In this document: positions 3,563 to 39,659 of the stretch, in pieces | Numbering within the stretch: position 1 is the first letter of the stretch | How the letters are laid out: the number at the start of each line of letters is the position of its first letter | Assembly: GCF_000255655.1 (NCBI RefSeq) | Contig: NZ_JH636436.1 | Span: 654,985-718,984 of the forward strand | DNA length: 64,000 bases | Reading direction: 5' to 3' | Source of the DNA: Schlesneria paludicola DSM 18645 | GTDB lineage: Bacteria > Planctomycetota > Planctomycetia > Planctomycetales > Planctomycetaceae | Position numbers and translations under genes: made by a program | The notes under the pieces: generated by a model | Told to the model about the DNA's origin: nothing | The model's database searches: none | Seen by the model: the letters and a program-made list of their open reading frames with translations, nothing else

Positions 3563-4335
3563 AGTGTTCCTTGTGACCTCCGCGGTGCGAGTGCGATGGC
3601 GCCGATCGTGGCAATCAACAGCACCGTTCCGGCCAACTCGACAAAGTAGAGATAATCTCCGAATAGCGAACGTCCCAGGACTTTCAGTGAACCGATTTCG
3701 CGGGAGGTGTTTGTTTCGGTGTACGCGGCCTGGCTGAGCGGATTCGCCTCGATGGTGACGGGAACGGCGATGAACTGCCCGGATTGCGGTGCGTCATTCG
3801 TTGATTTGCCGTCGATCCCACCCCATTGCTGGAGGGTCAACAAGAGTGCCCCCAGCAGGACGAACGCACCGAACGATGCCACTCCTGGCTGGAATGGGTG
3901 GTTATCGTAACCGCCGCTGGACGCGGTTTGCTGGGCAAGCATGATCACGAACATAAACGTCACGATGATCGCACCGGCATAGACGATAATGGTCGTCGCC
4001 GCCAGAAAGGGGGCCGAGTTGATCAGGAACAGGCCACAAACCGCCAGGGTCACGATTGCGAACCACAAGGCCGAGTAGACGGGGTTGCGGTCGGTCACCA
4101 TCAACGTGGCACTGATGACTGCCGTCGCTGCAAAGACGAAAAACAGGGCGCTACGGATGAAGTCGCCCGTGGCGGGCAACAGCATGGGCTGGAGAGTCAG
4201 CAGGGCAGCCAGCCCTACGAGTCCACCAAGAATCCGCGGGCGATGCTTGCCTGCAGGCATCAGCAACCAAACGGCCAGCCAGCCCAATCCCAACGGGATC
4301 AGCAGCAGTCCGTTTTCTTTCAACCATTCCATCAC
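3559..4335 (-). CDS. nuoJ: NADH-quinone oxidoreductase subunit J
   Basis: 258-aa membrane ORF placed between nuoI and nuoK. Confidence 0.85.
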   Translation of the reverse strand: MMEWLKENGLLLIPLGLGWLAVWLLMPAGKHRPRILGGLVGLAALLTLQPMLLPATGDFIRSALFFVFAATAVISATLMVTDRNPVYSALWFAIVTLAVCGLFLINSAPFLAATTIIVYAGAIIVTFMFVIMLAQQTASSGGYDNHPFQPGVASFGAFVLLGALLLTLQQWGGIDGKSTNDAPQSGQFIAVPVTIEANPLSQAAYTETNTSREIGSLKVLGRSLFGDYLYFVELAGTVLLIATIGAIALAPRRSQGTL

Positions 4336-4424
4336 AATTCATTCCCGTCAGAAGCAACTAGTTGCAGGAATCAAAATGAATTCAGCAGCCGAGGTGTTTG
4401 AGCCGTCACGCTCATACCGAGTGG

Positions 4425-31057: not shown

Positions 31058-31131
31058 GGACGATTAGCTCAGTTGGTTAGAGCGCCACGTTGACATCGTG
31101 GAGGTCGTTGGTTCGAGTCCAATATCGTCCA
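31058..31131 (+). tRNA. tRNA-Val (anticodon GAC)
   Basis: Canonical cloverleaf: GGACGAT/ATCGTCC acceptor, GCTC-AGTTGGTTAG-AGCG D-arm, anticodon loop TTGACAT, T-loop TTCGAGT, discriminator A. Confidence 0.85.
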
Positions 31132-31447
31132 CTTATCACAACTTGATGCTGGCTCGTAATTTACGATTGCCCATCAGGTGAAGAAAGAGGGCCAAAGCGG
31201 GTTGCTACCCTAGTTTTGACCCTGATCGGCCCTGCGGCGTGAAAGTTTGTCGTTCATCGGACCCTGTTGCAGGGTGGCGCATCCGCGAGGAATCTGAAAA
31301 GTCCTCAACCTCTCTCTTCTCCTGCCTGAATTCCGCCAAACAGCAGGCTCGCGTCAAGATTGACGTCAGATCAACTGACAAAACGACGATCCCCGTGGAG
31401 CCGCAGGACTGCCCCACGGGGATTCGTGTTTGAGGAAAATGAAACGT

Positions 31448-32644
31448 TCACAACAGATTGACCACTTTGTCGGCGAGTCCCTTATCACCAAGGATGATAT
31501 TGAGCTTTCCGGCCGAAGCGATCTTTTCCAAGACTTCCAACTCGCGCAATCGCATCAGTGTCGGGCTGTCCGCCAGCAGTTTGGCCGTGTTGGCCTGGCT
31601 GCGGATCGCCGCTGTCTCTTCGCGTCGTGCGATCAAGTTCGCCTCGGCAGCCTTGTGAGCTTCCGTGACCTTGTTCATCAGATCCTTCATATCACCCGGC
31701 AGGATCACATCCCGGATACCGACCGAGGCGATCTCCAGTCCCAGTTCACCCGCTCGACGTCGGATGTTGTCCTGGATCTCCTTCGCGACAGCATCCTTGT
31801 CCGTCAGGAAAGCATCGAGTTCGCGCGCTCCCACCACGCCTCGCAGCACGAGCTGCGTGTCGCGGTACAGAGCCTGTCGCACATCGTCGGTCTGGCTGAC
31901 GGCCTTGCGAGCATCAACCACCTTGTAGGTCACGACAGCGTTCAGTCGCAAAGTGACTTTGTCGGCCGTCATGATCTCCTGACCACCAACGTCGACGATG
32001 GTTTCCCGCAGGTCAACTTCAACCAGCTTGGCTTCGGCCGTACCTTTCCAGAACGCGTACTCACCCGGAGCAAGCGAGTCGACATAGCGACCGTCGATGA
32101 AAAGCACGCCCACGTGATCACGCTGGACCGAGCCAACATCCAGGACACGGTTGGCCAGCGCCGAGCGGACAATCACCTTGAACTGTTCGTGCTCAAAGCG
32201 GACCGGTTGAATATCGATGATCTCGACGCGGACTTGCTTCTGGCCCGTCCAGCAGGCGTGCTGACCTGCTGGCAAGACTTGACTGAACCGGTTCTCGATC
32301 CAGACCAATGCTCGCTCGTTGTCCTTCAGGTCCAGGACCACGGCGCGCTCGGCGAGCGCACCAGACTTGATCATCAAGTCCAACTTCTCGTGAACGAGCC
32401 ACGGCTCACGCTGCGACACGACGTCGACACGGACTTTGCCGAATGGATCAAAGAACCAGTGAGCACCAGCCGTGAGCAGGCCTTGAAACTCACCGTCGCG
32501 GAACAACAAGCCCATTTCGTAGGTACGAATCTTGAAACGCTTCAACAGAATCACGGCAGACCTCCTTTCTGGAGGATCAATCAACGGAAGGCATTCTTGG
32601 CCTCGGGAATTCAATCGCTTTGACGATTTAGACGACAAAGACAC
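31448..32644 (-). CDS. SPFH/band-7 (slipin-like) domain protein
   Basis: RFKIRTYEMGLLFRDGEF start typical of slipin-like proteins; coiled-coil C-terminus. Confidence 0.8.
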   Translation of the reverse strand: MSLSSKSSKRLNSRGQECLPLIDPPERRSAVILLKRFKIRTYEMGLLFRDGEFQGLLTAGAHWFFDPFGKVRVDVVSQREPWLVHEKLDLMIKSGALAERAVVLDLKDNERALVWIENRFSQVLPAGQHACWTGQKQVRVEIIDIQPVRFEHEQFKVIVRSALANRVLDVGSVQRDHVGVLFIDGRYVDSLAPGEYAFWKGTAEAKLVEVDLRETIVDVGGQEIMTADKVTLRLNAVVTYKVVDARKAVSQTDDVRQALYRDTQLVLRGVVGARELDAFLTDKDAVAKEIQDNIRRRAGELGLEIASVGIRDVILPGDMKDLMNKVTEAHKAAEANLIARREETAAIRSQANTAKLLADSPTLMRLRELEVLEKIASAGKLNIILGDKGLADKVVNLL

Positions 32645-32958: not shown

Positions 32959-33030
32959 CGTGCTGTACGGGAGTCGAACCCGTGACTGCCAGATTCTCAG
33001 TCTGGTGCTCTACCTCTGAGCTAACGTCAC
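32959..33030 (-). tRNA. tRNA-like gene, anticodon GAG (leucine-type anticodon) but class-I length; acceptor stem with two internal mismatches (possible pseudogene)
   Basis: Good D-arm (GCTC-AGAGGTA-GAGC), anticodon arm (CCAGA-CTGAGAA-TCTGG) and T-arm (ACGGG-TTCGACT-CCCGT). Acceptor GTGACGT vs ACAGCAC has A·G and C·A mismatches. 5-nt variable region. Confidence 0.35.
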
Positions 33031-33134
33031 CAATGACTTCCGGTCAGAACCCATGTTCGGAACAGTCGGAGCAAAACTCTTTCGAGTGCCCCGACCGCCG
33101 CTGGACGGATGACATCAATGCTTTCAATCCAAAG

Positions 33135-33206
33135 AGACACCGGTGGGAGTCGAACCCACTGGATGCGGCTTTGCAGGCCGCCGCCACGCCGTGTGACATC
33201 AGCGTC
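33135..33206 (-). tRNA. tRNA-Cys (GCA)
   Basis: Anticodon arm GCGGC-CTGCAAA-GCCGC; T-loop TTCGACT; acceptor pairs with G·U wobbles; U73 discriminator as in tRNA-Cys. Confidence 0.55.
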
Positions 33207-33216
33207 ATTCAGTCAG

Positions 33217-33287
33217 TGTCCCTGCCAGGAGTTGAACCTGGTCTACGACCTTCGCAGGGTCGCGTGCATCCACCACACTCCAAGGAC
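33217..33287 (-). tRNA. tRNA-Arg (GCG)
   Basis: Acceptor GTCCTTG/CAGGGAC; D-stem GTGT/GCAC; anticodon loop CTGCGAA; T-loop TTCAACT; discriminator A. Confidence 0.6.
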
Positions 33288-33360
33288 AAAATATTGGTTC
33301 TCTCACTCAACGCGAGAACGACCTTCGATGACAAAACATTTGTGATCGCGCACTAAAAAA

Positions 33361-33431
33361 TACCCCACCGAGGAATCGAACCTCGCCCGACTGCTTCGAA
33401 GGCAGCCATGCATCCTTCACACTCGCAGGGC
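33361..33431 (-). tRNA. tRNA-Arg (TCG)
   Basis: Anticodon loop CTTCGAA; T-arm CGAGG-TTCGATT-CCTCG; acceptor pairs with three G·U wobbles. Confidence 0.5.
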
Positions 33432-33441
33432 ATATTTTCAT

Positions 33442-33513
33442 TCTCCCGACCTGGACTCGAACCAGGGCCTGGACCTTCGGAGAGTCCAATGCATTCCGCT
33501 ACAACATCGGGAC
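33442..33513 (-). tRNA. tRNA-Arg (CCG), G1·G72 mismatch
   Basis: Anticodon arm GGACT-CTCCGAA-GGTCC; T-arm CCTGG-TTCGAGT-CCAGG; first acceptor pair unpaired. Confidence 0.45.
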
Positions 33514-33599
33514 AAACAGGGCCGACGACTGGATTCGCACCAGCATGATTCCGCTTACAAGGCGGACGCCTTTCTCGATCGAGCCACGTCGGCAGTCAG

Positions 33600-33670
33600 C
33601 ACGAGCGCGAGGATTCGAACCCCATCCAGCAGTTTTGGAGGCTGCCCGCTCTCCCAGGAGCATCACTCGT
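33600..33670 (-). tRNA. tRNA-Trp (CCA)
   Basis: Anticodon loop CTCCAAA (as in E. coli tRNA-Trp); acceptor ACGAGTG/CGCTCGT; T-loop TTCGAAT; discriminator G. Confidence 0.5.
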
Positions 33671-33754
33671 GTGTTGCGTCCGCAAGGCGGGCACGAAAAA
33701 CATCGCGCGAACGATGAACCCATTCGTAACCCGTCTCGCGACGCGCATGAAAAA

Positions 33755-34402
33755 TCATTCATCCAATTCCACGGTCCAGTACGCCTCACTGAGGAACTTG
33801 GACCAGCTTCCGATCCGAACATCGTGCTGAGCATAGAGCGGTTTCCAGGTTGGACGTGTCGGCACCTTCTGCAACGGCATGTGTGCTTCAGCGGGTGTAC
33901 GATCGGCTTTGCGCAGGTTGCATTCCAGACACGCCAAAACACAGTTCTCCCAGACGCTGGTCCCACCTCGAGATCGAGGCAACACGTGATCGATCGTTAG
34001 GTCTTCTGTTCTGAGACACTCATGGCGCGGGCTGCGTTCGGCCTGTGAATCCCGATTGTCCACGCCGATGAAGCGGCTATGCCGCCCACAGTACTGACAG
34101 GTGTATCGATCTCGTTTGTAGATGTTTCGGCGACTGAATGTGACCGTGTTTGTGGGAACCCGGTCATATTCGGTCAGGGTGATCACCTCCGGCACGCGAA
34201 TCCGAGACGTCACCGACTGGACGAACAGTTCATCGTCCTGTGGGATTCGCTTCGCCCAATCAGCCCAGGTGTGCTGCTGAAAGTCAGCCGGATCGACGAT
34301 TCGTGCCCGTTCCGCAGCCACCAGCGTCAATGAACGTGCCACCGAGGCCACACCCACCGGCTGCCAGTTCCGGTTCAGTACCAGAGTCTGTCGACTCAAC
34401 AT
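33755..34402 (-). CDS. HNH endonuclease (McrA-like)
   Basis: HNH motif (YTCQYCG...IDHVLPRSRGGTSVWENCVLACLECNLRK). Start set at the internal Met (MLSRQTLVLN) so it does not overlap tRNA-His. Confidence 0.7.
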   Translation of the reverse strand: MLSRQTLVLNRNWQPVGVASVARSLTLVAAERARIVDPADFQQHTWADWAKRIPQDDELFVQSVTSRIRVPEVITLTEYDRVPTNTVTFSRRNIYKRDRYTCQYCGRHSRFIGVDNRDSQAERSPRHECLRTEDLTIDHVLPRSRGGTSVWENCVLACLECNLRKADRTPAEAHMPLQKVPTRPTWKPLYAQHDVRIGSWSKFLSEAYWTVELDE

Positions 34403-34434
34403 CGCCACCACGATTTTCTCTTTCTTATGAAAAG

Positions 34435-34509
34435 GGTGTTCGAACGGGATTGAACCGTCACCTTCGGCTTCACAGGCCGACATGCAGAAACCACTACACC
34501 ACGAACACC
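34435..34509 (-). tRNA. tRNA-His (GTG) with encoded G-1
   Basis: Anticodon arm TCGGC-CTGTGAA-GCCGA; acceptor GTGTTCG/CGAACAC; an extra 5' G (G-1) opposite the C73 discriminator, the hallmark of tRNA-His. Confidence 0.7.
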
Positions 34510-34510
34510 G

Positions 34511-34616
34511 CGCCTTCGCGCGAGAAAGTAGACAGTAGAGAGTTGAAAGTAGAACTGGTTCGCGACGCGTCTTGTCTACTCTCTACTTTCAATCAACTAC
34601 TTTCTCGCGCAGCGTG
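34511..34616. repeat. Palindromic spacer repeat family A, copy 1 (begins 2 nt upstream of the tRNA-His 5' end)
   Basis: cgccttcgcgcgagaaagtag...ctactttctcgcgcagcg with ~14-bp outer inverted repeats; related copies at 36741-36838 and 38998-39110. Confidence 0.55.
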
Positions 34617-34706
34617 CGGAAGGAGCGGGAGTTGAACCCGCAAGGCACATTAAAAATGCTCGACCGGCTTCCAACCGGTTCCCGTCACCATTCGGGTTGC
34701 CCTTCC
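34617..34706 (-). tRNA. tRNA-Ser (GGA), class II
   Basis: Anticodon arm ACCGG-TTGGAAG-CCGGT; long variable arm; T-arm GCGGG-TTCAACT-CCCGC; discriminator G. Confidence 0.55.
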
Positions 34707-34719
34707 GTTTTGACTTCAA

Positions 34720-34791
34720 TACCTCGACCAGGAATCGAACCCAGAACTCCCCGTTAGAAGCGGAGCATGATTTCTATTTCACCATCGAGGC
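34720..34791 (-). tRNA. tRNA-Arg (TCT)
   Basis: Acceptor GCCTCGA/TCGAGGT; anticodon arm CTCCG-CTTCTAA-CGGGG; T-loop TTCGATT; discriminator A. Confidence 0.6.
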
Positions 34792-34801
34792 CAAAAACAA
34801 G

Positions 34802-34889
34802 CGGAAGGCAAGGGATTCGAACCCTCATCTCCCGTGAGGGAGAGTCGCGTTAGCAGTGCGGTCCGGCCAACCGTATCCGGCTACCTTCC
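34802..34889 (-). tRNA. tRNA-Ser (GCT), class II, weak anticodon stem
   Basis: Anticodon loop CTGCTAA; variable arm CTCCC-TCAC-GGGAG; T-arm GAGGG-TTCGAAT-CCCTT; discriminator G; anticodon stem has terminal mismatches. Confidence 0.5.
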
Positions 34890-34927
34890 AATATCGAAAA
34901 GTTGAAATGCGTTTGCGCGGCATGGTC

Positions 34928-35416
34928 TCATCGCCGTTTCACGCCAGGATCGGCGAAATGTTCAATTCTTGTATGCCGTCCCGTTTCAATGTCCGCGAAG
35001 ACGTAATTCTCCGACGCGACCGGTGACCCAGCCATCCTCCGGAAAATGCCGATCTGCCCCAAGTGCAGCATCGCGTCCGCAAACGGACCTTGCAGCAGGT
35101 CCTCTTCATTGACATCGCGAATTGAAGACTCGTTGAGAAGTGACGCGTCAAGCTTTGCTAGGATCTCGAAGTAACCAAACACTTCGGCATTCCATGCCAA
35201 CATAGGCGGCTCAGTGGATTCATAGGGAACCATGAACGAATGCGCGTAGATGAGCACACCTCTCATGTGATTGAGAATCTCGCGTGGGCTTCGAACAGAT
35301 TCTGAGGGCCGGAAGTCTGCGATTTCCGGTGGCATATTCCTGAGCACATTGGCTCCGCGATATGCCAGCGCCGACAGAAAGTGCCGCAGCATGTATCTCT
35401 TCGTCGTTGTTTCCAT
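34928..35416 (-). CDS. DinB/YfiT-like four-helix-bundle protein (hypothetical)
   Basis: Start has GGAGAT 5 nt upstream (METTTKRYMLRHF...). DinB_2-like size and His spacing. Weak assignment. Confidence 0.45.
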   Translation of the reverse strand: METTTKRYMLRHFLSALAYRGANVLRNMPPEIADFRPSESVRSPREILNHMRGVLIYAHSFMVPYESTEPPMLAWNAEVFGYFEILAKLDASLLNESSIRDVNEEDLLQGPFADAMLHLGQIGIFRRMAGSPVASENYVFADIETGRHTRIEHFADPGVKRR

Positions 35417-35589
35417 CGTTATCTCCAATTGTTCCCAACGATTCGCCAAAGCGGCCTGTGAACATACTGAGTCGATTGATCCCCAATAGCGTTGAACCAT
35501 CAGTTCCAGCATGTCAGGTTGATGTCGTACTGATTGATCATGACGTCATGATCAATCGAATAACGAAATCTGAGACCTCAATCCAGAAG

Positions 35590-36254
35590 TTATTCCCAGT
35601 ATTGCTCCCACTTGTCGCCGTAAGATTCCTTGAGGCGTTCTAGGTAGACATAAGTCTTGATCTTGCCCATTTGCAAATCGCGGCCGCTTCGTCCTGATTT
35701 GCAAATGACACCCTCGGTGACACCGTATTTCCCGCAACGAACATCTTCGGCGAATGCCCCGGTGAACTTGCCACGGTGAACTTGCCACGGTACACGATTC
35801 GTGCAATCGGAAGATGTCCGAACCGTTCTACGAATTCGAAAGGCCCGAGTAGGTCTTCGTCACGTGCGACATCAAACATGACCAATCGCTTGACATCATC
35901 AAATTTATGTCGCCCAGCGAATGAATTCGCTCCGAGGTATTCAGCAAATGCAGTGAACCCTTGAACTGTGCTTTCCGAGGCCAATTCACTGAACGTGTGG
36001 GCCAAGGACGCGGACAATGTTTGACGAAAAACTTCCATCGCATCCGATAGCTCAGGGTGATCGTGACGAAACAGTTCCTCGCCGCGATCATCAATATTGA
36101 ACTCATCGCGTCGCGTTCCAAACGCATGCCAGCCGAAGTCCCGATCCCAACGGAAATGCAAATTCGTTCCGTCGTATTTTTCGAAAGCTATGCACTCGGT
36201 GAACGGGAAGTCTTTAGTGTTCGGAATCTTGCGGTAATGTAGCGCGGAGGGCAT
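35590..36254 (-). pseudogene. Rnl2-family ATP-dependent RNA ligase (nucleotidyltransferase domain), apparently frameshifted by a 14-bp tandem duplication at 35761-35788
   Basis: Motif I EKYDGTNLHF (cf. T4 Rnl2 EKIHGTNF), motif III-like AFAEYLG, motif IV LVMFDV and RGKF are in the annotated 204-aa frame (35640-36254). Motif V EGVICKSG appears only in the frame restored by deleting one 14-nt unit, which then runs to TAA at 35590. Confidence 0.5.
35761..35788. repeat. Perfect 14-bp tandem duplication (ggtgaacttgccac x2) inside the RNA-ligase coding region
   Basis: Direct reading of the sequence; the unit length is not a multiple of 3. Confidence 0.9.
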
Positions 36255-36343
36255 GGAGGAATCCTGGCTATCGACCTGATCGCTTTTCCTGTTTGCGTAC
36301 TTGGCCGTCTACTTTCACGGTCGGGTGCCTGCCCTGTCTGCAG

Positions 36344-36428
36344 TGACCAAGGGGAGAGTCGAACTCCCAAGCCCACGAGGGGCACGACGTTCTGAGCGTC
36401 GCGTGTCTACCAGTTGCACCACTTGGCC
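36344..36428 (-). tRNA. tRNA-Leu (CAG), canonical class II
   Basis: 3-bp D-stem with 11-nt loop containing GGTAGA; anticodon arm CGACG-CTCAGAA-CGTCG; 16-nt variable arm (GCCC-CTCGT-GGGC); discriminator A. Confidence 0.7.
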
Positions 36429-36436
36429 ATAATCAG

Positions 36437-36509
36437 TGACCCGTGCGGGATTTGAACCCGCGTTGCCGGCATGAGGGGCCAGCATCCTGAACCGCTAGAA
36501 GAACGGGCC
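36437..36509 (-). tRNA. tRNA-like gene with atypical anticodon loop CCCTCAT (C33; anticodon CTC/Glu-like or CAT-like)
   Basis: Good acceptor (GGCCCGT/ACGGGTC), T-arm GCGGG-TTCAAAT-CCCGC, 6-bp anticodon stem; identity unresolved. Confidence 0.35.
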
Positions 36510-36519
36510 GTTGTTCGAG

Positions 36520-36600
36520 TGCGTCGGGCAGGAGTTGAACCTGCACTGCACGAGGCGGGTGGGTTACAGCCACTTGGGCACGCCAATGCCCAGCCGACGC
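36520..36600 (-). tRNA. tRNA-Tyr (GTA), class II
   Basis: Acceptor GCGTCGG/CCGACGC perfect; D-stem GGGC/GCCC; anticodon loop CTGTAAC; 13-nt variable arm; discriminator A. Confidence 0.65.
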
Positions 36601-36664
36601 ATTCTAATTCGCGCTCACGAATATCTTGCAAACGGGTGTCGTTCGCGCGATGCACGTGAGCGAG

Positions 36665-36739
36665 TAACACGGGTGGGAGTCGAACCCACAGACCACGAAG
36701 GTTTGAGCTTCGCCGCTTTGCCGGATTGCGTACCGTGCC
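36665..36739 (-). tRNA. tRNA with CAA (leucine-type) anticodon, Leu-like D-arm but short variable region (class I length, 75 nt)
   Basis: Anticodon arm CGAAG-CTCAAAC-CTTCG perfect; D-stem CGC/GCG with 11-nt loop; variable region only 6 nt; discriminator A. Confidence 0.5.
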
Positions 36740-36740
36740 G

Positions 36741-36838
36741 CGCCTTCTGCGAGAGAGTAAAAGGTTGAAAGTCGCAAGTAGACAAGAATGGATCCGTCTA
36801 CTCTCAACTCACTACCACCTACTTTCTCGCGCAGCGTA
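36741..36838. repeat. Palindromic spacer repeat family A, copy 2 (fills the spacer between two tRNAs)
   Basis: cgccttctgcgagagagta...ctactttctcgcgcagcgtagc; shares the termini of copy 1. Confidence 0.55.
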
Positions 36839-36839
36839 G

Positions 36840-36913
36840 CGTCCTCGATGGGATTTGAACCCACGTCTCCACCGTGACAGGATGGAGAGCATTCCAGGCT
36901 GCTCCGCGAGGAC
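36840..36913 (-). tRNA. tRNA-Asp (GTC)
   Basis: Acceptor GTCCTCG/CGAGGAC perfect; D-arm GAGC/GCTC; anticodon loop CTGTCAC; discriminator G. Confidence 0.7.
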
Positions 36914-37034
36914 TTTTTCACGCGCGATCAAGATGGGAATGGAAATCAGTGTCGACCGCGCGTTGATAATTAACTCACCTCCCAACGCGCGAGTGACTGG
37001 GTCTGCGCAACCCATCACCGACGCGCACTAAACG

Positions 37035-37108
37035 TAGCTCAGGTGGGAGTCGAACCCACAGCATCCCTGGTTCTAAGCCAAGGTGGTCTGCCGATTGCCT
37101 ACCGAGCC
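37035..37108 (-). tRNA. tRNA with TAG (leucine-type) anticodon and short variable region; weak D-stem
   Basis: Anticodon arm CTTGG-CTTAGAA-CCAGG; T-arm GTGGG-TTCGACT-CCCAC; 6-nt variable region; discriminator A. Confidence 0.45.
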
Positions 37109-37121
37109 ATGTCTTGTTTGA

Positions 37122-37194
37122 TGCCCAGAGCGGGATTTGAACCCGCAAACACTCGATCTTAAGTCGAGTCACTCACACGTTGGCGTACCTGGGC
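37122..37194 (-). tRNA. tRNA with TAA (leucine-type) anticodon and 5-nt variable region (73 nt)
   Basis: Acceptor GCCCAGG/TCTGGGC; 3-bp D-stem plus 10-nt loop; anticodon arm CTCGA-CTTAAGA-TCGAG perfect; T-arm GCGGG-TTCAAAT-CCCGC; discriminator A. Confidence 0.5.
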
Positions 37195-37206
37195 ATGTCA
37201 TCGAAG

Positions 37207-37278
37207 TAATCCCGGATGGACTCGAACCATCGTTACCTGGGTGTAGGCCAGGCGTCGTCGCCGCTGGACCACGGGATC
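37207..37278 (-). tRNA. tRNA-Val (TAC) with C33
   Basis: Anticodon arm CCTGG-CCTACAC-CCAGG (position 33 is C); T-arm GATGG-TTCGAGT-CCATC; discriminator A. Confidence 0.5.
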
Positions 37279-37288
37279 AAATAAAAAA

Positions 37289-37359
37289 TGGACTTATCGG
37301 GAATCGCACCCGAATTTTTGGTTTGCAGGACCGATGTCTTCCTGTTGGACCATGAGCCC
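37289..37359 (-). pseudogene. Degenerate tRNA-like element (non-canonical T-loop TGCGATT, acceptor and anticodon-stem mismatches; loop CCTGCAA)
   Basis: Only partial cloverleaf complementarity. Confidence 0.25.
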
Positions 37360-37379
37360 GATTGTTCGTCGCCAGCGAG

Positions 37380-37465
37380 CGGAAGCCGTGGGGCTCGAAC
37401 CCACAAGCGGGATGTTCCCGCCGCCTGTTTTCAAGACAGGTTCCTCATCCGGCCGGATGACTTCC
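37380..37465 (-). tRNA. tRNA-Ser (TGA), class II
   Basis: Acceptor GGAAGTC/GGCTTCC; anticodon arm CCTGT-CTTGAAA-ACAGG; variable arm GCGGG-AACAT-CCCGC; discriminator G. Confidence 0.6.
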
Positions 37466-37477
37466 GTAATCTGTAAA

Positions 37478-37551
37478 TTGTGGGAGTTGGAATCGAACCA
37501 ACGCCTCCGGGTTCAGAGCCCAGCATCGCCACCAGCAGCGACTATCCCGCA
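37478..37551 (-). tRNA. tRNA-Gln (CTG)
   Basis: U1-A72 first pair as in tRNA-Gln; D-stem GTCG/CGAT; anticodon arm CTGGG-CTCTGAA-CCCGG; one C3·A70 mismatch. Confidence 0.55.
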
Positions 37552-37627
37552 ATGAATTTGATTGAGACAAGACACTCGTACTTTCCAAGGGTTCGTGTGC
37601 TACCGTGGTTCTCGGTAAACTGATGGA

Positions 37628-38101
37628 ATGGATGTGAACTGTGCCAAGCAGATGTTCTTTGCCTACGACGGGTCGCGTTTCTACATGTCGCGAAACGGAG
37701 ATGAGGACAAATACGCTCAGATGCAGGTCCCAGCATCGATCGAAGCACAATGGTTGGATGAGTTGACATCTCGCAAACTCGATCAACTCATTTCTTCGGC
37801 AAATTGGATGGTTGTACATTTTCTCCTTCATCATTCCGACTTCCGCCAATTGGACCGACTCGCCGCAGCTGCGCCATTGGGAACTCTTCAGGAGAAATGT
37901 GCATTTCTTGAGGAACTCCTAAAATATGTACAGCAATGTTGTGGAGCATATGAGTCCAGTCGTCTCGCTAACGTTTGCGATTCAATTCTTCGAGATGCAT
38001 TCACGTTGCGAAAGCGGGCTCGGGCGAAGAATTCCCTTGCTCGAATTGAACGCCTCGTCGAGAACGCCGAAAAGTTTGTCGCGACGTTGCTCTCAGATTG
38101 A
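37628..38101 (+). CDS. Hypothetical protein (157 aa) in a lower-GC segment inside the tRNA array
   Basis: Intact ORF on the opposite strand to the array with no overlap with tRNAs; no recognisable motif. Confidence 0.4.
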   Translation: MDVNCAKQMFFAYDGSRFYMSRNGDEDKYAQMQVPASIEAQWLDELTSRKLDQLISSANWMVVHFLLHHSDFRQLDRLAAAAPLGTLQEKCAFLEELLKYVQQCCGAYESSRLANVCDSILRDAFTLRKRARAKNSLARIERLVENAEKFVATLLSD

Positions 38102-38104
38102 TGA

Positions 38105-38178
38105 ATTGCGGGGGCAGGAATCGAACCTGCGCCTCCGGGGTCAAAGCCCAGCATCGCTGCCAACAGCGACTACCCCGC
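38105..38178 (-). tRNA. tRNA-Gln (TTG)
   Basis: Acceptor TGCGGGG/CCCCGCA perfect with U1-A72; anticodon arm CTGGG-CTTTGAC-CCCGG; T-arm GCAGG-TTCGATT-CCTGC. Confidence 0.7.
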
Positions 38179-38185
38179 AATGGAA

Positions 38186-38257
38186 GAGGGACGGGTGGGA
38201 CTCGAACCCACGCGCTGGTGCTTAACAAACACCTGCTCTGCCGCTGAGCTACCGACC
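38186..38257 (-). tRNA. tRNA-Asn (GTT), T4·T69 acceptor mismatch
   Basis: D-arm GCTC-AGCGGCA-GAGC; anticodon arm GGTGT-TTGTTAA-GCACC; T-arm GTGGG-TTCGAGT-CCCAC. Confidence 0.55.
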
Positions 38258-38264
38258 CAATCGA

Positions 38265-38336
38265 GAGTGCCCTGCGGGAATCGAACCCGCCTGTCCAACT
38301 TGGAAGGCTGGCACCTCTGCCGATCGGTCAAGGGCA
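38265..38336 (-). tRNA. tRNA-Gly (TCC)
   Basis: Acceptor GTGCCCT/AGGGCAC perfect; anticodon arm CCAGC-CTTCCAA-GTTGG; U73 discriminator. Confidence 0.65.
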
Positions 38337-38359
38337 CATATTCTTTCCTCAAGTCGGAA

Positions 38360-38491
38360 GCCGTGGGACTCGAACCCACAATCCCGATTCTCGGGACACC
38401 TGCTTTCGAGCGTTGTACATCTATCGCGGCTTCAGCCTTCATCCTCGCTTTCGCTCGGCCGCAGGCCTTGCTTCCAGCCGGATGACTTCCA
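38360..38491 (-). tRNA. tRNA-Ser(CGA)-like gene with a ~50-nt insertion between anticodon-stem position 31 and the loop (intron-like or disrupted)
   Basis: Ends match tRNA-Ser(TGA) at 37380-37465 (GGAAGTCATCC... / ...GTGGGTTCGAGTCCCACGGCTTCCG). Stem CCTGC/GCAGG encloses the 50-nt insert followed by a canonical loop CTCGAAA. Variable arm TCCCG-AGAAT-CGGGA intact. Confidence 0.3.
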
Positions 38492-38634
38492 TTCGTGTTA
38501 AGGCTGCGGCGACAGGAATCGAACCATCAACCGAAGCCGCTGGCCGAATAGGTCAGTTGAAGGCGAAGGGCGATAGTCTTTCAAATCCGAGTCGCCTGCC
38601 CGTACCAACACGGACTCCACCGCAATTTATATCA

Positions 38635-38708
38635 GTCAGCGCGGTCGGATTTGAACCGACGATCTCGTGGTCCCAAGCCACGCGGATTTCCATGCTTTCC
38701 CACACGCT
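38635..38708 (-). tRNA. tRNA-Pro (TGG)
   Basis: C1-G72 first pair and A73, typical of tRNA-Pro; anticodon arm CGTGG-CTTGGGA-CCACG; T-arm GTCGG-TTCAAAT-CCGAC. Confidence 0.7.
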
Positions 38709-38768
38709 GACAATCGTTCATCGCGGATCGACCTTCGTTGTCATCAAGGATCGTCCACGCGAACAAAA

Positions 38769-38839
38769 AAGCACCCAGCGGGAGTTGAACCCGCACCTCC
38801 GCCTTGGCGAGACGGTACGCTGCCGCTACGTCATGGGTG
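38769..38839 (-). tRNA. tRNA-Gly (GCC) with C33
   Basis: Acceptor GCACCCA/TGGGTGC perfect; D-stem ACGT/GCGT; anticodon loop TCGCCAA; U73. Confidence 0.5.
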
Positions 38840-38923
38840 CATGCATTCCTGGCCGAATTGTTAAAGACCTATTCGCAACGCGCGATTGGCCAAGTTTGTG
38901 AACTCGCTTCATCGCGCATGAAA

Positions 38924-38995
38924 AAGCACCGGGTGGGACTCGAACCCACGTTGCCGTATTACGGGTGCGGTGTCTTGGCCGCTAAACGACCAGTG
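38924..38995 (-). tRNA. tRNA-Thr (CGT) with C33
   Basis: Acceptor GCACTGG/CCGGTGC; D-stem GTTT/AGAC; anticodon arm CCGCA-CCCGTAA-TACGG (one mismatch); T-arm GTGGG-TTCGAGT-CCCAC. Confidence 0.45.
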
Positions 38996-38997
38996 CA

Positions 38998-39110
38998 GCG
39001 CCTTCGGCGAGAAAGTAGAGAGTGGAAAGTCGTGAGTGGACAAGAACCGATCCGTCTACTTTCCACTCTCTACGGACTATTCTCTCTGTCCCGGCACGCC
39101 GGGACAGAGA
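38998..39110. repeat. Palindromic spacer repeat family A, copy 3, plus a 13-bp hairpin (ctctctgtcccgg/ccgggacagagag) that overlaps the 3' end of tRNA-Lys(CTT)
   Basis: cgccttcggcgagaaagtagagagtggaaagt...actttccactctctac has a perfect 16-bp inverted repeat. It starts 3 nt upstream of the 5' end of the preceding tRNA. Confidence 0.55.
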
Positions 39111-39179
39111 GACCAGACGGACTTGAACCGTCACTTGCTCGGGTAAGAACCGAGTGTGCTGCCACTAACACCTTGATCC
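39107..39179 (-). tRNA. tRNA-Lys (CTT)
   Basis: D-stem GTGT/GCAC; anticodon arm CTCGG-TTCTTAC-CCGAG perfect; T-arm GACGG-TTCAAGT-CCGTC; acceptor with two G·U wobbles. Confidence 0.6.
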
Positions 39180-39196
39180 CGTAATCCTTCGTTCAG

Positions 39197-39268
39197 TTAG
39201 GCCTGGGCGGAGTTGAACCGTCGTCTGGCCCTTATAAGGAGCCTGCTCTCATCGTTGAGCTACAGGCC
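39197..39268 (-). tRNA. tRNA-Ile (TAT)
   Basis: Canonical D-arm GCTC-AACGATGA-GAGC; anticodon arm GGCTC-CTTATAA-GGGCC; A73. Confidence 0.55.
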
Positions 39269-39277
39269 CAGTAATCA

Positions 39278-39349
39278 ATGGGGCCGGAGGGATTCGAACC
39301 CCCACCGGGCAGATTAAAAGTCTGCTGTGCTGCAGTTACACCACGACCC
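39278..39349 (-). tRNA. tRNA-Lys (TTT)
   Basis: Acceptor GGGGTCG/CGGCCCC; anticodon arm GCAGA-CTTTTAA-TCTGC perfect; T-loop TTCGAAT; A73. Confidence 0.65.
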
Positions 39350-39410
39350 CGGATGAGGACGTGGTTCCATTTGTTCGTGAGGTCTCGATCCATAATCTGC
39401 ACCTTGTTCA

Positions 39411-39481
39411 ATCGCTTGGAGTGGAGTTGAACCACCGCTGTCGCCGTATCAGAACGACGTGCTTCCGTTACACCACCAAGC
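39411..39481 (-). tRNA. tRNA-Ile (GAT)
   Basis: Acceptor CGCTTGG/CCAAGCG perfect; anticodon loop CTGATAC; T-arm GGTGG-TTCAACT-CCACT; A73. Confidence 0.6.
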
Positions 39482-39623
39482 GGAGTCGGGATGGTCAGAA
39501 TCGAACTGACTGTGTTCAACTACCGCGGCCCGGCCTTCATCCTCGCTATTCGCTCGGCGTCATTCCTTACTTCTCAGCTACCAGCCCGGAAATGACAGAA
39601 CTTTGACTTCGTCAAAACGAAGA

Positions 39624-39659
39624 AGCCCGGTGTCCTTTGCGTGACACCGGGCTCTTTTG
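39624..39659. terminator. GC-rich hairpin (11-bp stem agcccggtgtc/gacaccgggct) followed by a T-run; reads as a terminator in both orientations
   Basis: Perfect inverted repeat with cttttg on the plus strand and tcttcgttttg on the minus strand; lies at the upstream (minus-sense) edge of the tRNA array. Confidence 0.4.

Follow-up and report, generated by a model that had tools for sequence, protein, structure and literature searches.

A 32-gene tRNA array with embedded HNH endonuclease and RNA ligase genes on the chromosome of Schlesneria paludicola DSM 18645

We analyzed a 64,000-nucleotide stretch of the Schlesneria paludicola DSM 18645 genome (contig NZ_JH636436.1, positions 654,985 to 718,984; hereafter the window, in whose own numbering coordinates are given) and found on its minus strand a tRNA gene array that belongs securely to a class already described as long tRNA arrays, L-arrays or tRNA array units; it is not a new kind of system. 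The array comprises 32 tRNA genes, each with an anticodon of its own and together serving 18 amino acids, packed at 4.8 genes per kb over 6.5 kb, and the genome average calculated from published counts is about 0.6 tRNA genes per 64 kb. The published cut-off for a tRNA array unit is ≥20 tRNA genes at ≥2 per kb (Tran et al. 2016, PMC4758250), and the array exceeds both values. It also shows the non-periodic composition, the sporadic distribution and the linked HNH gene of such units, and Planctomycetes are among the phyla with such arrays in both surveys (PMC4758250, PMC8421152). L-arrays are held to spread horizontally (PMC8421152, PMC4758250); however, horizontal acquisition is an interpretation attached to the class and lies outside its operational definition, and its signs are missing at this locus, where GC content is normal, no integrase or att repeat accompanies the array and relatives carry it at the same site. 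The array is homologous to arrays of other planctomycetes, and its tRNA genes are under selection to keep the cloverleaf.

Composition of the array and selection on its members

tRNA genes in the window were called with ARAGORN and with the Rfam model RF00005 at its gathering score. ARAGORN placed 30 minus-strand genes at 32959-39482; RF00005 supported 25 of these and added two more, tRNA-Ala(UGC) at 37289-37359 (43 bits) and tRNA-Arg(UCG) at 33361-33431 (37 bits). The five genes called by ARAGORN alone (Trp, Tyr and three Ser) align below threshold to tRNA-clan models and have conserved orthologues in related arrays. An initial annotation made from the sequence alone had described about 30 co-oriented minus-strand tRNA genes, and this count holds up under the covariance-model search that it had proposed, which returned far more than a handful of genes. 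The same annotation had found no Ala or clear Glu member. This was incorrect: Ala(UGC) has the alanine identity pair G3:U70 and A73, although it also has C33 and two stem mismatches, and Glu(CUC) is present. Thr(UGU) was likewise missing from its list of anticodons. It was right about Met, which has neither an initiator nor an elongator gene in the array, and right in part about Phe, which is represented only by a disrupted first gene; these are the only amino acids without a working gene, and Glu(UUC) is not in the array either.

All 32 genes share the minus strand; within blocks they are 4-153 nt apart, and the co-oriented run is broken up by three protein genes and three long hairpin elements. 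The array is non-periodic: only the two Gln genes are close paralogues (84%), and the remaining repeats are T-arm matches. The 3' CCA is encoded by none of the tRNA genes, and U33 together with a 7-nt anticodon loop is kept in 29 of them. Rfam scores of array members range from 35 to 63 bits, compared with 71 bits for the neighboring tRNA-Val(GAC). In many members the 3' trailer continues from N73 with CUGA or UUGA (e.g., ACTGAA, ACTGAT and ATTGAA), which may reflect a shared 3'-processing context.

Strong evidence that the cloverleaf structures are under selection comes from a comparison of 39 orthologous tRNA pairs, which differ at 179 stem base pairs. Both sides had changed and were still paired in 73 cases, one side had changed with pairing retained in 68, and pairing was broken in 38; because 79% of changed stem pairs still pair, we consider that selection maintains the cloverleaf. 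The initial annotation had judged most members functional-looking, which agrees with this result, but had treated their mismatched and G·U-rich stems as an anomaly. In the window array G·U pairs make up 9.6% and mismatches 2.8% of stem pairs, fractions equal to or below those of related arrays, and the corresponding values for the functional array of Anabaena PCC 7120 are 9.1% and 4.5%. Such stems are a property of the whole class and not a sign of decay here.

Published tRNA gene counts are 77 for S. paludicola, 51 for Schlesneria sp. DSM 10557 and 54 for Planctoellipticum (PMC10923784, PMC11812302). Because the two array-free relatives have 51-54 genes, and the excess of about 25 tRNAs is about equal to the size of the array, we infer from these totals, rather than from an anticodon-by-anticodon comparison, that the array is supernumerary to the housekeeping set.

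The four blocks reported initially, with HNH, DinB-like and RNA-ligase genes inside the array, were all confirmed. Block 1 (38105-39482, minus strand, as are all array features) was called by ARAGORN and Rfam and reads, in the direction of transcription, Ile(GAU) 39412-39482, Lys(UUU) 39279-39350, Ile(UAU) 39196-39270, Lys(CUU) 39107-39180, Thr(CGU) 38925-38996, Gly(GCC) 38770-38840 and Pro(UGG) 38635-38709, followed by two long tRNA-like genes and then by Gly(UCC) 38265-38337, Asn(GUU) 38186-38258 and Gln(UUG) 38105-38180. Block 2 (36343-37552), which also combines ARAGORN and Rfam calls, contains Gln(CUG) 37477-37552, Ser(UGA) 37379-37465, Ala(UGC), Val(UAC) 37206-37278, the short-arm genes Leu(UAA) 37120-37195 and Leu(UAG) 37034-37108, Asp(GUC) 36839-36913, short-arm Leu(CAA) 36664-36739, Tyr(GUA) 36519-36600, Glu(CUC) 36436-36509 and long-arm Leu(CAG) 36343-36428. 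Block 3 (34434-34889) has Ser(GCU) 34801-34889, Arg(UCU) 34720-34791, Ser(GGA) 34616-34706 and His(GUG) 34434-34508, the last with G-1 at 34509 and C73. Block 4 (33134-33670) consists of Trp(CCA) 33599-33670, Thr(UGU) 33519-33593, Arg(CCG) 33441-33514, Arg(UCG), Arg(GCG) 33216-33287 and Cys(GCA) 33134-33206. A 552-nt gap with a GC content of 48% (37553-38104) separates the two Gln genes; its open reading frames (157 aa on the plus strand and 134 aa on the minus strand) have no match in Pfam, PHROG or NCBIfam.

Homologous arrays and the history of the site

Related loci were collected as 84 loci fetched around homologues of the RNA ligase encoded in the array, and tRNA arrays are present at five of them. 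A Thalassoglobus sp. (locus L001) has an array of 31 tRNAs, GCA_021651095.1 one of 26 (L002, plus the partial contig L003) and Bremerella cremea one of 17 (L009), and a 3-kb contig from a Schlesneria metagenome-assembled genome holds a fragment with 3 tRNAs (L010). These arrays keep the order of the window, for example Val(UAC)-Leu(UAA)-Leu(UAG)-Asp-Leu(CAA)-Tyr-Glu(CUC)-Leu(CAG)-ligase-...-Ser(GCU)-Arg(UCU)-Ser(GGA)-His, and for most window tRNAs the top match in each related array is a gene with the same anticodon, at 70-95% identity. In the window and in the Thalassoglobus contig, a slipin gene (SPFH/Band 7; 31448-32554, minus strand in the window) lies directly downstream of the array, outside the array proper. 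We considered slipin as part of a co-transferred cassette and rejected this, because it is a highly conserved core gene (more than 80% identical in more than 120 clusters); it is better regarded as the anchor of the site than as cargo.

Other states of this site are seen in two metagenomic relatives, whose slipin is 93-94% identical. Locus L106 retains the 3' half of the array together with the HNH gene. It lacks the ligase and the DinB-like gene, and at the position of the latter it has Val(GAC)-Thr(GGU)-Ala(CGC). Loci L107-L109 retain the upstream flank with a terminator-like hairpin, the Phe-like first tRNA and the last four tRNAs. In the window this hairpin (39623-39654, minus strand; 12 bp, G+C-rich and followed by a T-run) ends the upstream gene and delimits the array on its 5' side, and it is conserved in L107. 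The distribution of the array is sporadic: it is found at 5 of the 84 ligase loci, it has been largely lost in a close relative, and Schlesneria sp. DSM 10557 has only 51 tRNAs (PMC11812302). Because the array occupies the same slipin site in close relatives and in Thalassoglobus, we conclude that it is a long-resident chromosomal locus, subject to decay in place, and not a recent mobile insertion. These comparisons portray the array as an old resident of the slipin-adjacent site that has been gaining, losing and rearranging members in place.

Further genes were seen around related arrays. In GCA_021651095.1 the array is followed, after about 2 kb, by a Ro60/TROVE-vWA gene (L002:13644-15254); the window has none. 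Elsewhere among bacteria, Ro60 orthologues act together with RtcB and tRNA-like Y RNAs. In L107, an rve-family integrase/transposase and a DUF927 protein are encoded 6-9 kb upstream of the array remnant (L107:1-3159) and could be linked to the rearrangement there.

Composition and context of the array are those of an ordinary chromosomal region. The GC content is 54.8% in the array, 50.6-57.3% in the embedded genes and 55.3% in the window, so that the array does not stand out, and the published value for S. paludicola is 55.7% (PMC10923784). The slipin and the DinB-like protein match S. paludicola proteins from a single 1.06-Mb contig at 100% identity. Profile matches of window proteins revealed no integrase or phage gene near the array; no phage structural, replication or integrase genes adjoin its tRNAs, as they would in a prophage tRNA island; and the phage collection searched contained no near-identical DNA. 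The direct repeats and the compositional deviation for which the initial annotation suggested looking were both absent: the only repeats around the array are T-arm matches, the Gln paralogues and palindromic spacers, none of them att-like. The flanks encode slipin, a histidine-biosynthesis enzyme, AhpC, ApbE, HypB, HycI and NiFe hydrogenase. A canonical plus-strand tRNA-Val had been noted beside the array, and we could identify it as Val(GAC) at 31058-31132 (ARAGORN; 71 bits in Rfam). It lies outside the array and is unrelated in sequence to the array Val genes, including the array-type Val(GAC) of related arrays; it is a housekeeping tRNA.

Unusual members and embedded genes

Five leucine genes had been reported, and the long variable arm is missing from four of these. 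The genes for Leu(UAA), Leu(UAG) and Leu(CAA) measure 75-76 nt. They combine a 3-bp D stem and a large D loop (a Leu-type D arm) with A73 and a variable loop of just 4-5 nt, and this form is conserved in L001, L002 and L009. By anticodon, loop, D arm and A73 these are type I tRNA-Leu genes. The Leu genes of the Anabaena 7120 L-array (plasmid delta, L087 1554-2090) are 75-78 nt long and also have a short, type I variable loop, a feature not discussed in the Anabaena paper (PMC8421152). The Anabaena array additionally holds a 71-nt Ser(CGA). The short arm is not universal in L-arrays, as an Acidiphilium plasmid array has normal Leu genes of 82-84 nt. A bacterial leucyl-tRNA synthetase (LeuRS) is able to charge type I tRNA-Leu in Streptomyces coelicolor, whose type I tRNA-Leu(CAA) has, as here, a short variable loop and exists beside type II tRNA-Leu (PMC6614811). 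However, the S. coelicolor gene is a housekeeping gene with a co-adapted LeuRS, whereas the window has three or four isoacceptors in an accessory array, and their charging is putative.

Arg(GCG) and Ile(UAU) are conserved in related arrays. Both are uncommon in bacteria, where Arg(ACG) and a CAU/lysidine tRNA-Ile2 are the usual choices, and neither requires A34 deamination or lysidine, which suggests that the set can decode without TadA and TilS.

The terminal tRNA-like gene, called as Leu(GAG) (32959-33030), has the highest Rfam score in the array. It is short-armed, with G73 and two acceptor mismatches, and its G73 sets it apart from the type I tRNA-Leu genes. The sequences of its D, T and anticodon stems are nearly identical in close relatives, and the body is almost the same in L107. 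The anticodon, on the other hand, is GAG in the window, AAC in L107 (9524-9595), GAU in L106 (about 4283-4355) and CGU in Thalassoglobus (L001:11646-11719); U33 is lost in L106 and L107, and changes cluster in the anticodon loop and the 5' acceptor strand. Because the body is conserved while the anticodon differs among relatives, a decoding role of this gene seems doubtful.

Three aberrant sequences with tRNA ends, 101-136 nt long, correspond to the pseudogene-like members and the "CGA-like" Ser of the initial annotation. The disrupted first gene of the array (39487-39587) has the 5' end of tRNA-Phe(GAA) of related arrays, but its anticodon region has been swapped for a module of about 47 nt that is shared with the sequence at 38355-38490; it is likely a pseudogene. 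The second, of 119 nt (38505-38623), combines a good acceptor stem (GCGGUGG/UCGCCGC) and A73 with a poor T stem and an anticodon loop of 18 nt; in its 5' part it resembles a Gln-scaffold "Asn(GUU)" gene of L002 and L009, and it too is likely a pseudogene. The third is a 136-nt tRNA-Ser-like RNA (38355-38490) with intact acceptor, variable and T arms, whose anticodon arm is lengthened by an insertion of about 50 nt holding CUCGAAA; its Thalassoglobus counterpart is 105 nt long (L001:8659-8763). The module, CCGAGCGAA.AGCGAGGAUGAAGGC....GCCGCGRUAGWUG.ACA, thus sits in the anticodon region of both Ser-like and Phe-like scaffolds. Half of it is also present in the Thalassoglobus Ser-like RNA, and the full module was not found beyond this array. 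The RNA that results, with tRNA ends and an extended anticodon arm, gave no match in Rfam.

Among the embedded genes, the one between blocks 2 and 3 (35593-36254, minus strand) encodes a minimal, PF09414-like ATP-dependent RNA ligase with a KYDG motif and is split in two frames. A search with its embedded open reading frame 35640-36254, annotated as "RNA ligase family protein", retrieved 753 homologues of 214-216 aa, mostly 214 aa, from Planctomycetota, Cyanobacteria, Armatimonadota and Chloroflexota. The motif FEKYDG (lysine motif I, KxDG) is invariant, and EGVxCK and KIKT, for motifs IV and V, are conserved in the homologues and present, yet out of frame, in the window. The frame is shifted by a perfect 14-bp tandem duplication (CCGTGGCAAGTTCA x2) at 35763-35790 on the minus strand. 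Because both halves are otherwise well conserved (62-65% identity to homologues), the duplication points to a very recent inactivation or a reversible slipped-strand switch. A sequence search of the PDB with the ligase profile gave no match, whereas a fold search with the model of one homologue (P0002; pLDDT 92.9) gave T4 Rnl2, trypanosome REL1, T4 Rnl1, archaeal Rnl3 and Naegleria NgrRnl as its best matches, all at a probability of 1.0 and a TM of about 0.55; the family is accordingly predicted, from this model, to have the Rnl nucleotidyltransferase fold. The ligase also has phage relatives at 37-43% identity; of eight viral contigs, most of them 130-360 kb in size, seven have the relative inside a tRNA-rich region. 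Since one tRNA order is common to all seven, these represent a single phage lineage. Remoter relatives are found in further huge phages. The homologue in phage XacN1 was examined as an array partner and dismissed, as it is not adjacent to tRNAs.

The HNH endonuclease gene (33755-34402, minus strand; 215 aa, PF01844 match with E 3.7e-13) is also present in L106. Its product aligns over the full length with the HNH protein encoded beside the Anabaena 7120 trn operon (30% identity, E 7e-26); the Anabaena gene is conserved upstream of cyanobacterial L-arrays and co-induced with them (PMC8421152), and embedded HNH genes are conserved in mycobacterial array units (PMC12803027). Even so, this family is not a reliable marker of plasmid arrays, as only one of five plasmid loci checked had an array. 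Compared with its Anabaena homologue, the array HNH has a 24-residue insertion between CxxC and the DH catalytic segment, and it shows a weak similarity, far below the NCBIfam cut-off, to the IscB and Cas9 HNH domains. The third embedded gene encodes a 162-aa DinB-superfamily protein (34928-35416, minus strand). We rejected it as a conserved array partner and consider it a passenger, because its homologues elsewhere sit outside arrays.

A palindromic spacer element of about 100 nt occurs in three copies on the minus strand (34509-34615, 36740-36838 and 38997-39106). The copies have 78% mean column identity and form long hairpins (dG -45 to -51 kcal/mol, z -4.4 to -5.7), and the element was not found in the rest of the window, in related arrays or in the other fetched loci. 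It may be a small miniature inverted-repeat transposable element (MITE) or a processing or termination element. A scan with the sigma-70 consensus, which is uninformative for a planctomycete, gave fewer matches than shuffled sequence and identified no promoter.

Relation to known systems and possible function

The closest known counterpart is the trn operon on plasmid delta of Anabaena PCC 7120 (PMC8421152). Like the window array, it is a co-oriented, non-periodic set of about 25-30 tRNA genes, supernumerary there and probably so in the window, with a homologous HNH gene adjacent or inside, short-arm tRNA-Leu genes, a similar load of G·U pairs and mismatches, and a functional link to an RNA ligase, rtcB being co-regulated with the operon. 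However, it is plasmid-borne, belongs to another phylum and has another gene order, and its tRNAs show no detectable one-to-one orthology to those of the window (identity is at most 0.71, which is background). Furthermore, the Anabaena ligase is RtcB and is encoded elsewhere, whereas an ATP-dependent Rnl-type ligase is encoded inside the window array, and some Anabaena array tRNAs encode CCA whereas none do in the window. The array units on Acidithiobacillus integrative and conjugative elements (ICEs) and on Mycobacterium plasmids and phages (PMC4758250; Yano et al. 2026, PMC12803027) share with the window array at least 20 tRNA genes at ≥2 per kb, coverage of 18-20 amino acids, redundancy with the chromosomal set (probable in the case of the window array), a single embedded HNH gene and divergent anticodon-domain sequences. 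They differ in being carried on ICEs, giant plasmids or phages with flanks that vary by strain, whereas the window array is chromosomal, compositionally native and located at a conserved site. The combination of clustered tRNAs, a homing endonuclease and an ATP-dependent RNA ligase is also seen in phage T4, which has a tRNA cluster, the homing endonuclease SegB and repair by Rnl1/Pnkp of tRNAs cut by anticodon nucleases. In contrast to the window array, T4 has only 8 tRNAs, and its Rnl1 is larger and paired with a kinase-phosphatase; profile matches of the embedded proteins revealed no end-healing enzyme in the window array.

We favor, with about even confidence, the view that the array is a reserve pool of tRNAs to be drawn on under translational stress or when tRNAs are attacked. 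We propose it because of the Anabaena L-array, the only experimentally studied case, where 23 of the 26 tRNAs are expressed and charged when translation is under stress (PMC8421152), and because of anti-defence proposals for phage and plasmid tRNAs (PMC8421152, PMC10264068, PMC12803027). By analogy, transcription of the array would probably start upstream of 39587 and yield a single precursor or a few, which would be cut into CCA-less tRNAs, completed by post-transcriptional addition of CCA and then charged. The array tRNAs would replace the housekeeping pool when it is damaged or when translation is impaired, for example by ribosome-targeting antibiotics, tRNA-cleaving toxins or anticodon nucleases. 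Ancestrally, the embedded ligase would have resealed cleaved tRNAs, and it would now be a dispensable repair partner, and the HNH endonuclease would promote maintenance or spread of the cassette.

Several observations weigh against a reserve pool. About 6 kb between the first tRNA and the last four has been lost in L107-L109. The reading frame of the ligase is not intact in the window and the gene is absent from the close relative L106, and it is therefore dispensable; moreover, 79 of the 84 fetched ligase loci are not near tRNAs, and the stand-alone homologues have no conserved RNA-repair neighbors. Because three members of the array are disrupted, selection may be weak or episodic. The broken ligase, the disrupted tRNA-like genes and the internal deletion in L107 also favor the main rival explanation, that the array is a decaying relic, a once-functional acquired set that is drifting to pseudogenes and has no present role, as do the inserted palindromic repeats and passenger gene and the unconstrained anticodon of the terminal tRNA. 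We nevertheless consider a relic unlikely: four-fifths of changed stem pairs (79%) still pair across genera, related arrays and the functional Anabaena array carry mismatch loads at least as high, and U33 and the 7-nt anticodon loop are nearly always kept.

A recent arrival of the array as cargo of an integrating phage, ICE or other mobile element is improbable. The initial annotation had called such arrays typical of mobile elements and phages, and this is true of the class, for which horizontal spread has been reported (PMC8421152, PMC4758250), and is in keeping with the homing-type HNH nuclease inside the array and with the ligase relatives in tRNA islands of huge phages; it does not extend to this locus, which lacks an integrase, phage genes, att repeats and a GC deviation, and both flanks of which are syntenic with those of relatives that carry full, partial or deleted versions beside slipin. 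A mainly non-decoding role, in which the tRNAs would be toxin decoys, sources of regulatory fragments or aminoacyl donors for non-ribosomal reactions, could account for the short-arm Leu, the C33 in Ala and the extended anticodon arms, and the literature leaves non-canonical roles open (PMC8421152). However, anticodons are conserved among orthologues and there is one gene per anticodon, a pattern selected by decoding and not expected of decoys, which makes this role very unlikely. The least probable alternative, for which we see hardly any room, is that the array is the principal housekeeping tRNA operon, as in Firmicutes, and not an extra set. Its 18 amino acids, its one gene per anticodon, its chromosomal context and its normal GC content would suit such an operon, but Met (initiator and elongator alike), a functional Phe and Glu(UUC) are all missing from it, its Rfam scores are well below that of the adjacent tRNA-Val, most of it is missing in close relatives, and the genome has about 25 tRNAs more than array-free relatives (PMC10923784, PMC11812302).

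A more far-reaching version of the reserve-pool reading, which we regard as speculative and unlikely to be correct in all its parts, combines the ligase with the decoding set. Here the 214-aa, nucleotidyltransferase-only ligase would be a dedicated partner of supernumerary tRNA sets, and together with a modification-independent set (one gene per anticodon, Arg(GCG) and not ACG, Ile(UAU) and not the lysidine-dependent CAU, and short-arm Leu) it would counter tRNA-cleaving toxins by "replace and repair"; the module would be shared by planctomycete chromosomes and one huge-phage lineage, and the long Ser-like RNAs, instead of being dead genes, would act as tRNA mimics directed at the ligase or at toxins.

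This locus does not overturn any current view. The association of a ligase with a tRNA array, the short-arm Leu shared with Anabaena, the occurrence of Arg(GCG) and Ile(UAU), the terminal gene with its hopping anticodon, the extended Ser-like RNAs and the series of in-place deletions may each be new. Long tRNA arrays are recognized but poorly understood loci in scattered bacteria, plasmids and phages, with functional data for the Anabaena array only. The short-arm tRNA-Leu found in both planctomycete and cyanobacterial arrays hints at shared ancestry or shared constraints across phyla. The recurrent embedding of an Rnl-type ligase suggests a testable link between tRNA replacement and tRNA repair, as do the anticodons that need neither A34 deamination nor lysidine. 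Finally, the planctomycete lineage offers full, partial and internally deleted arrays, with the ligase intact, broken or absent, at one chromosomal site, and this series of states is a natural experiment on what such an array retains and what it can dispense with.

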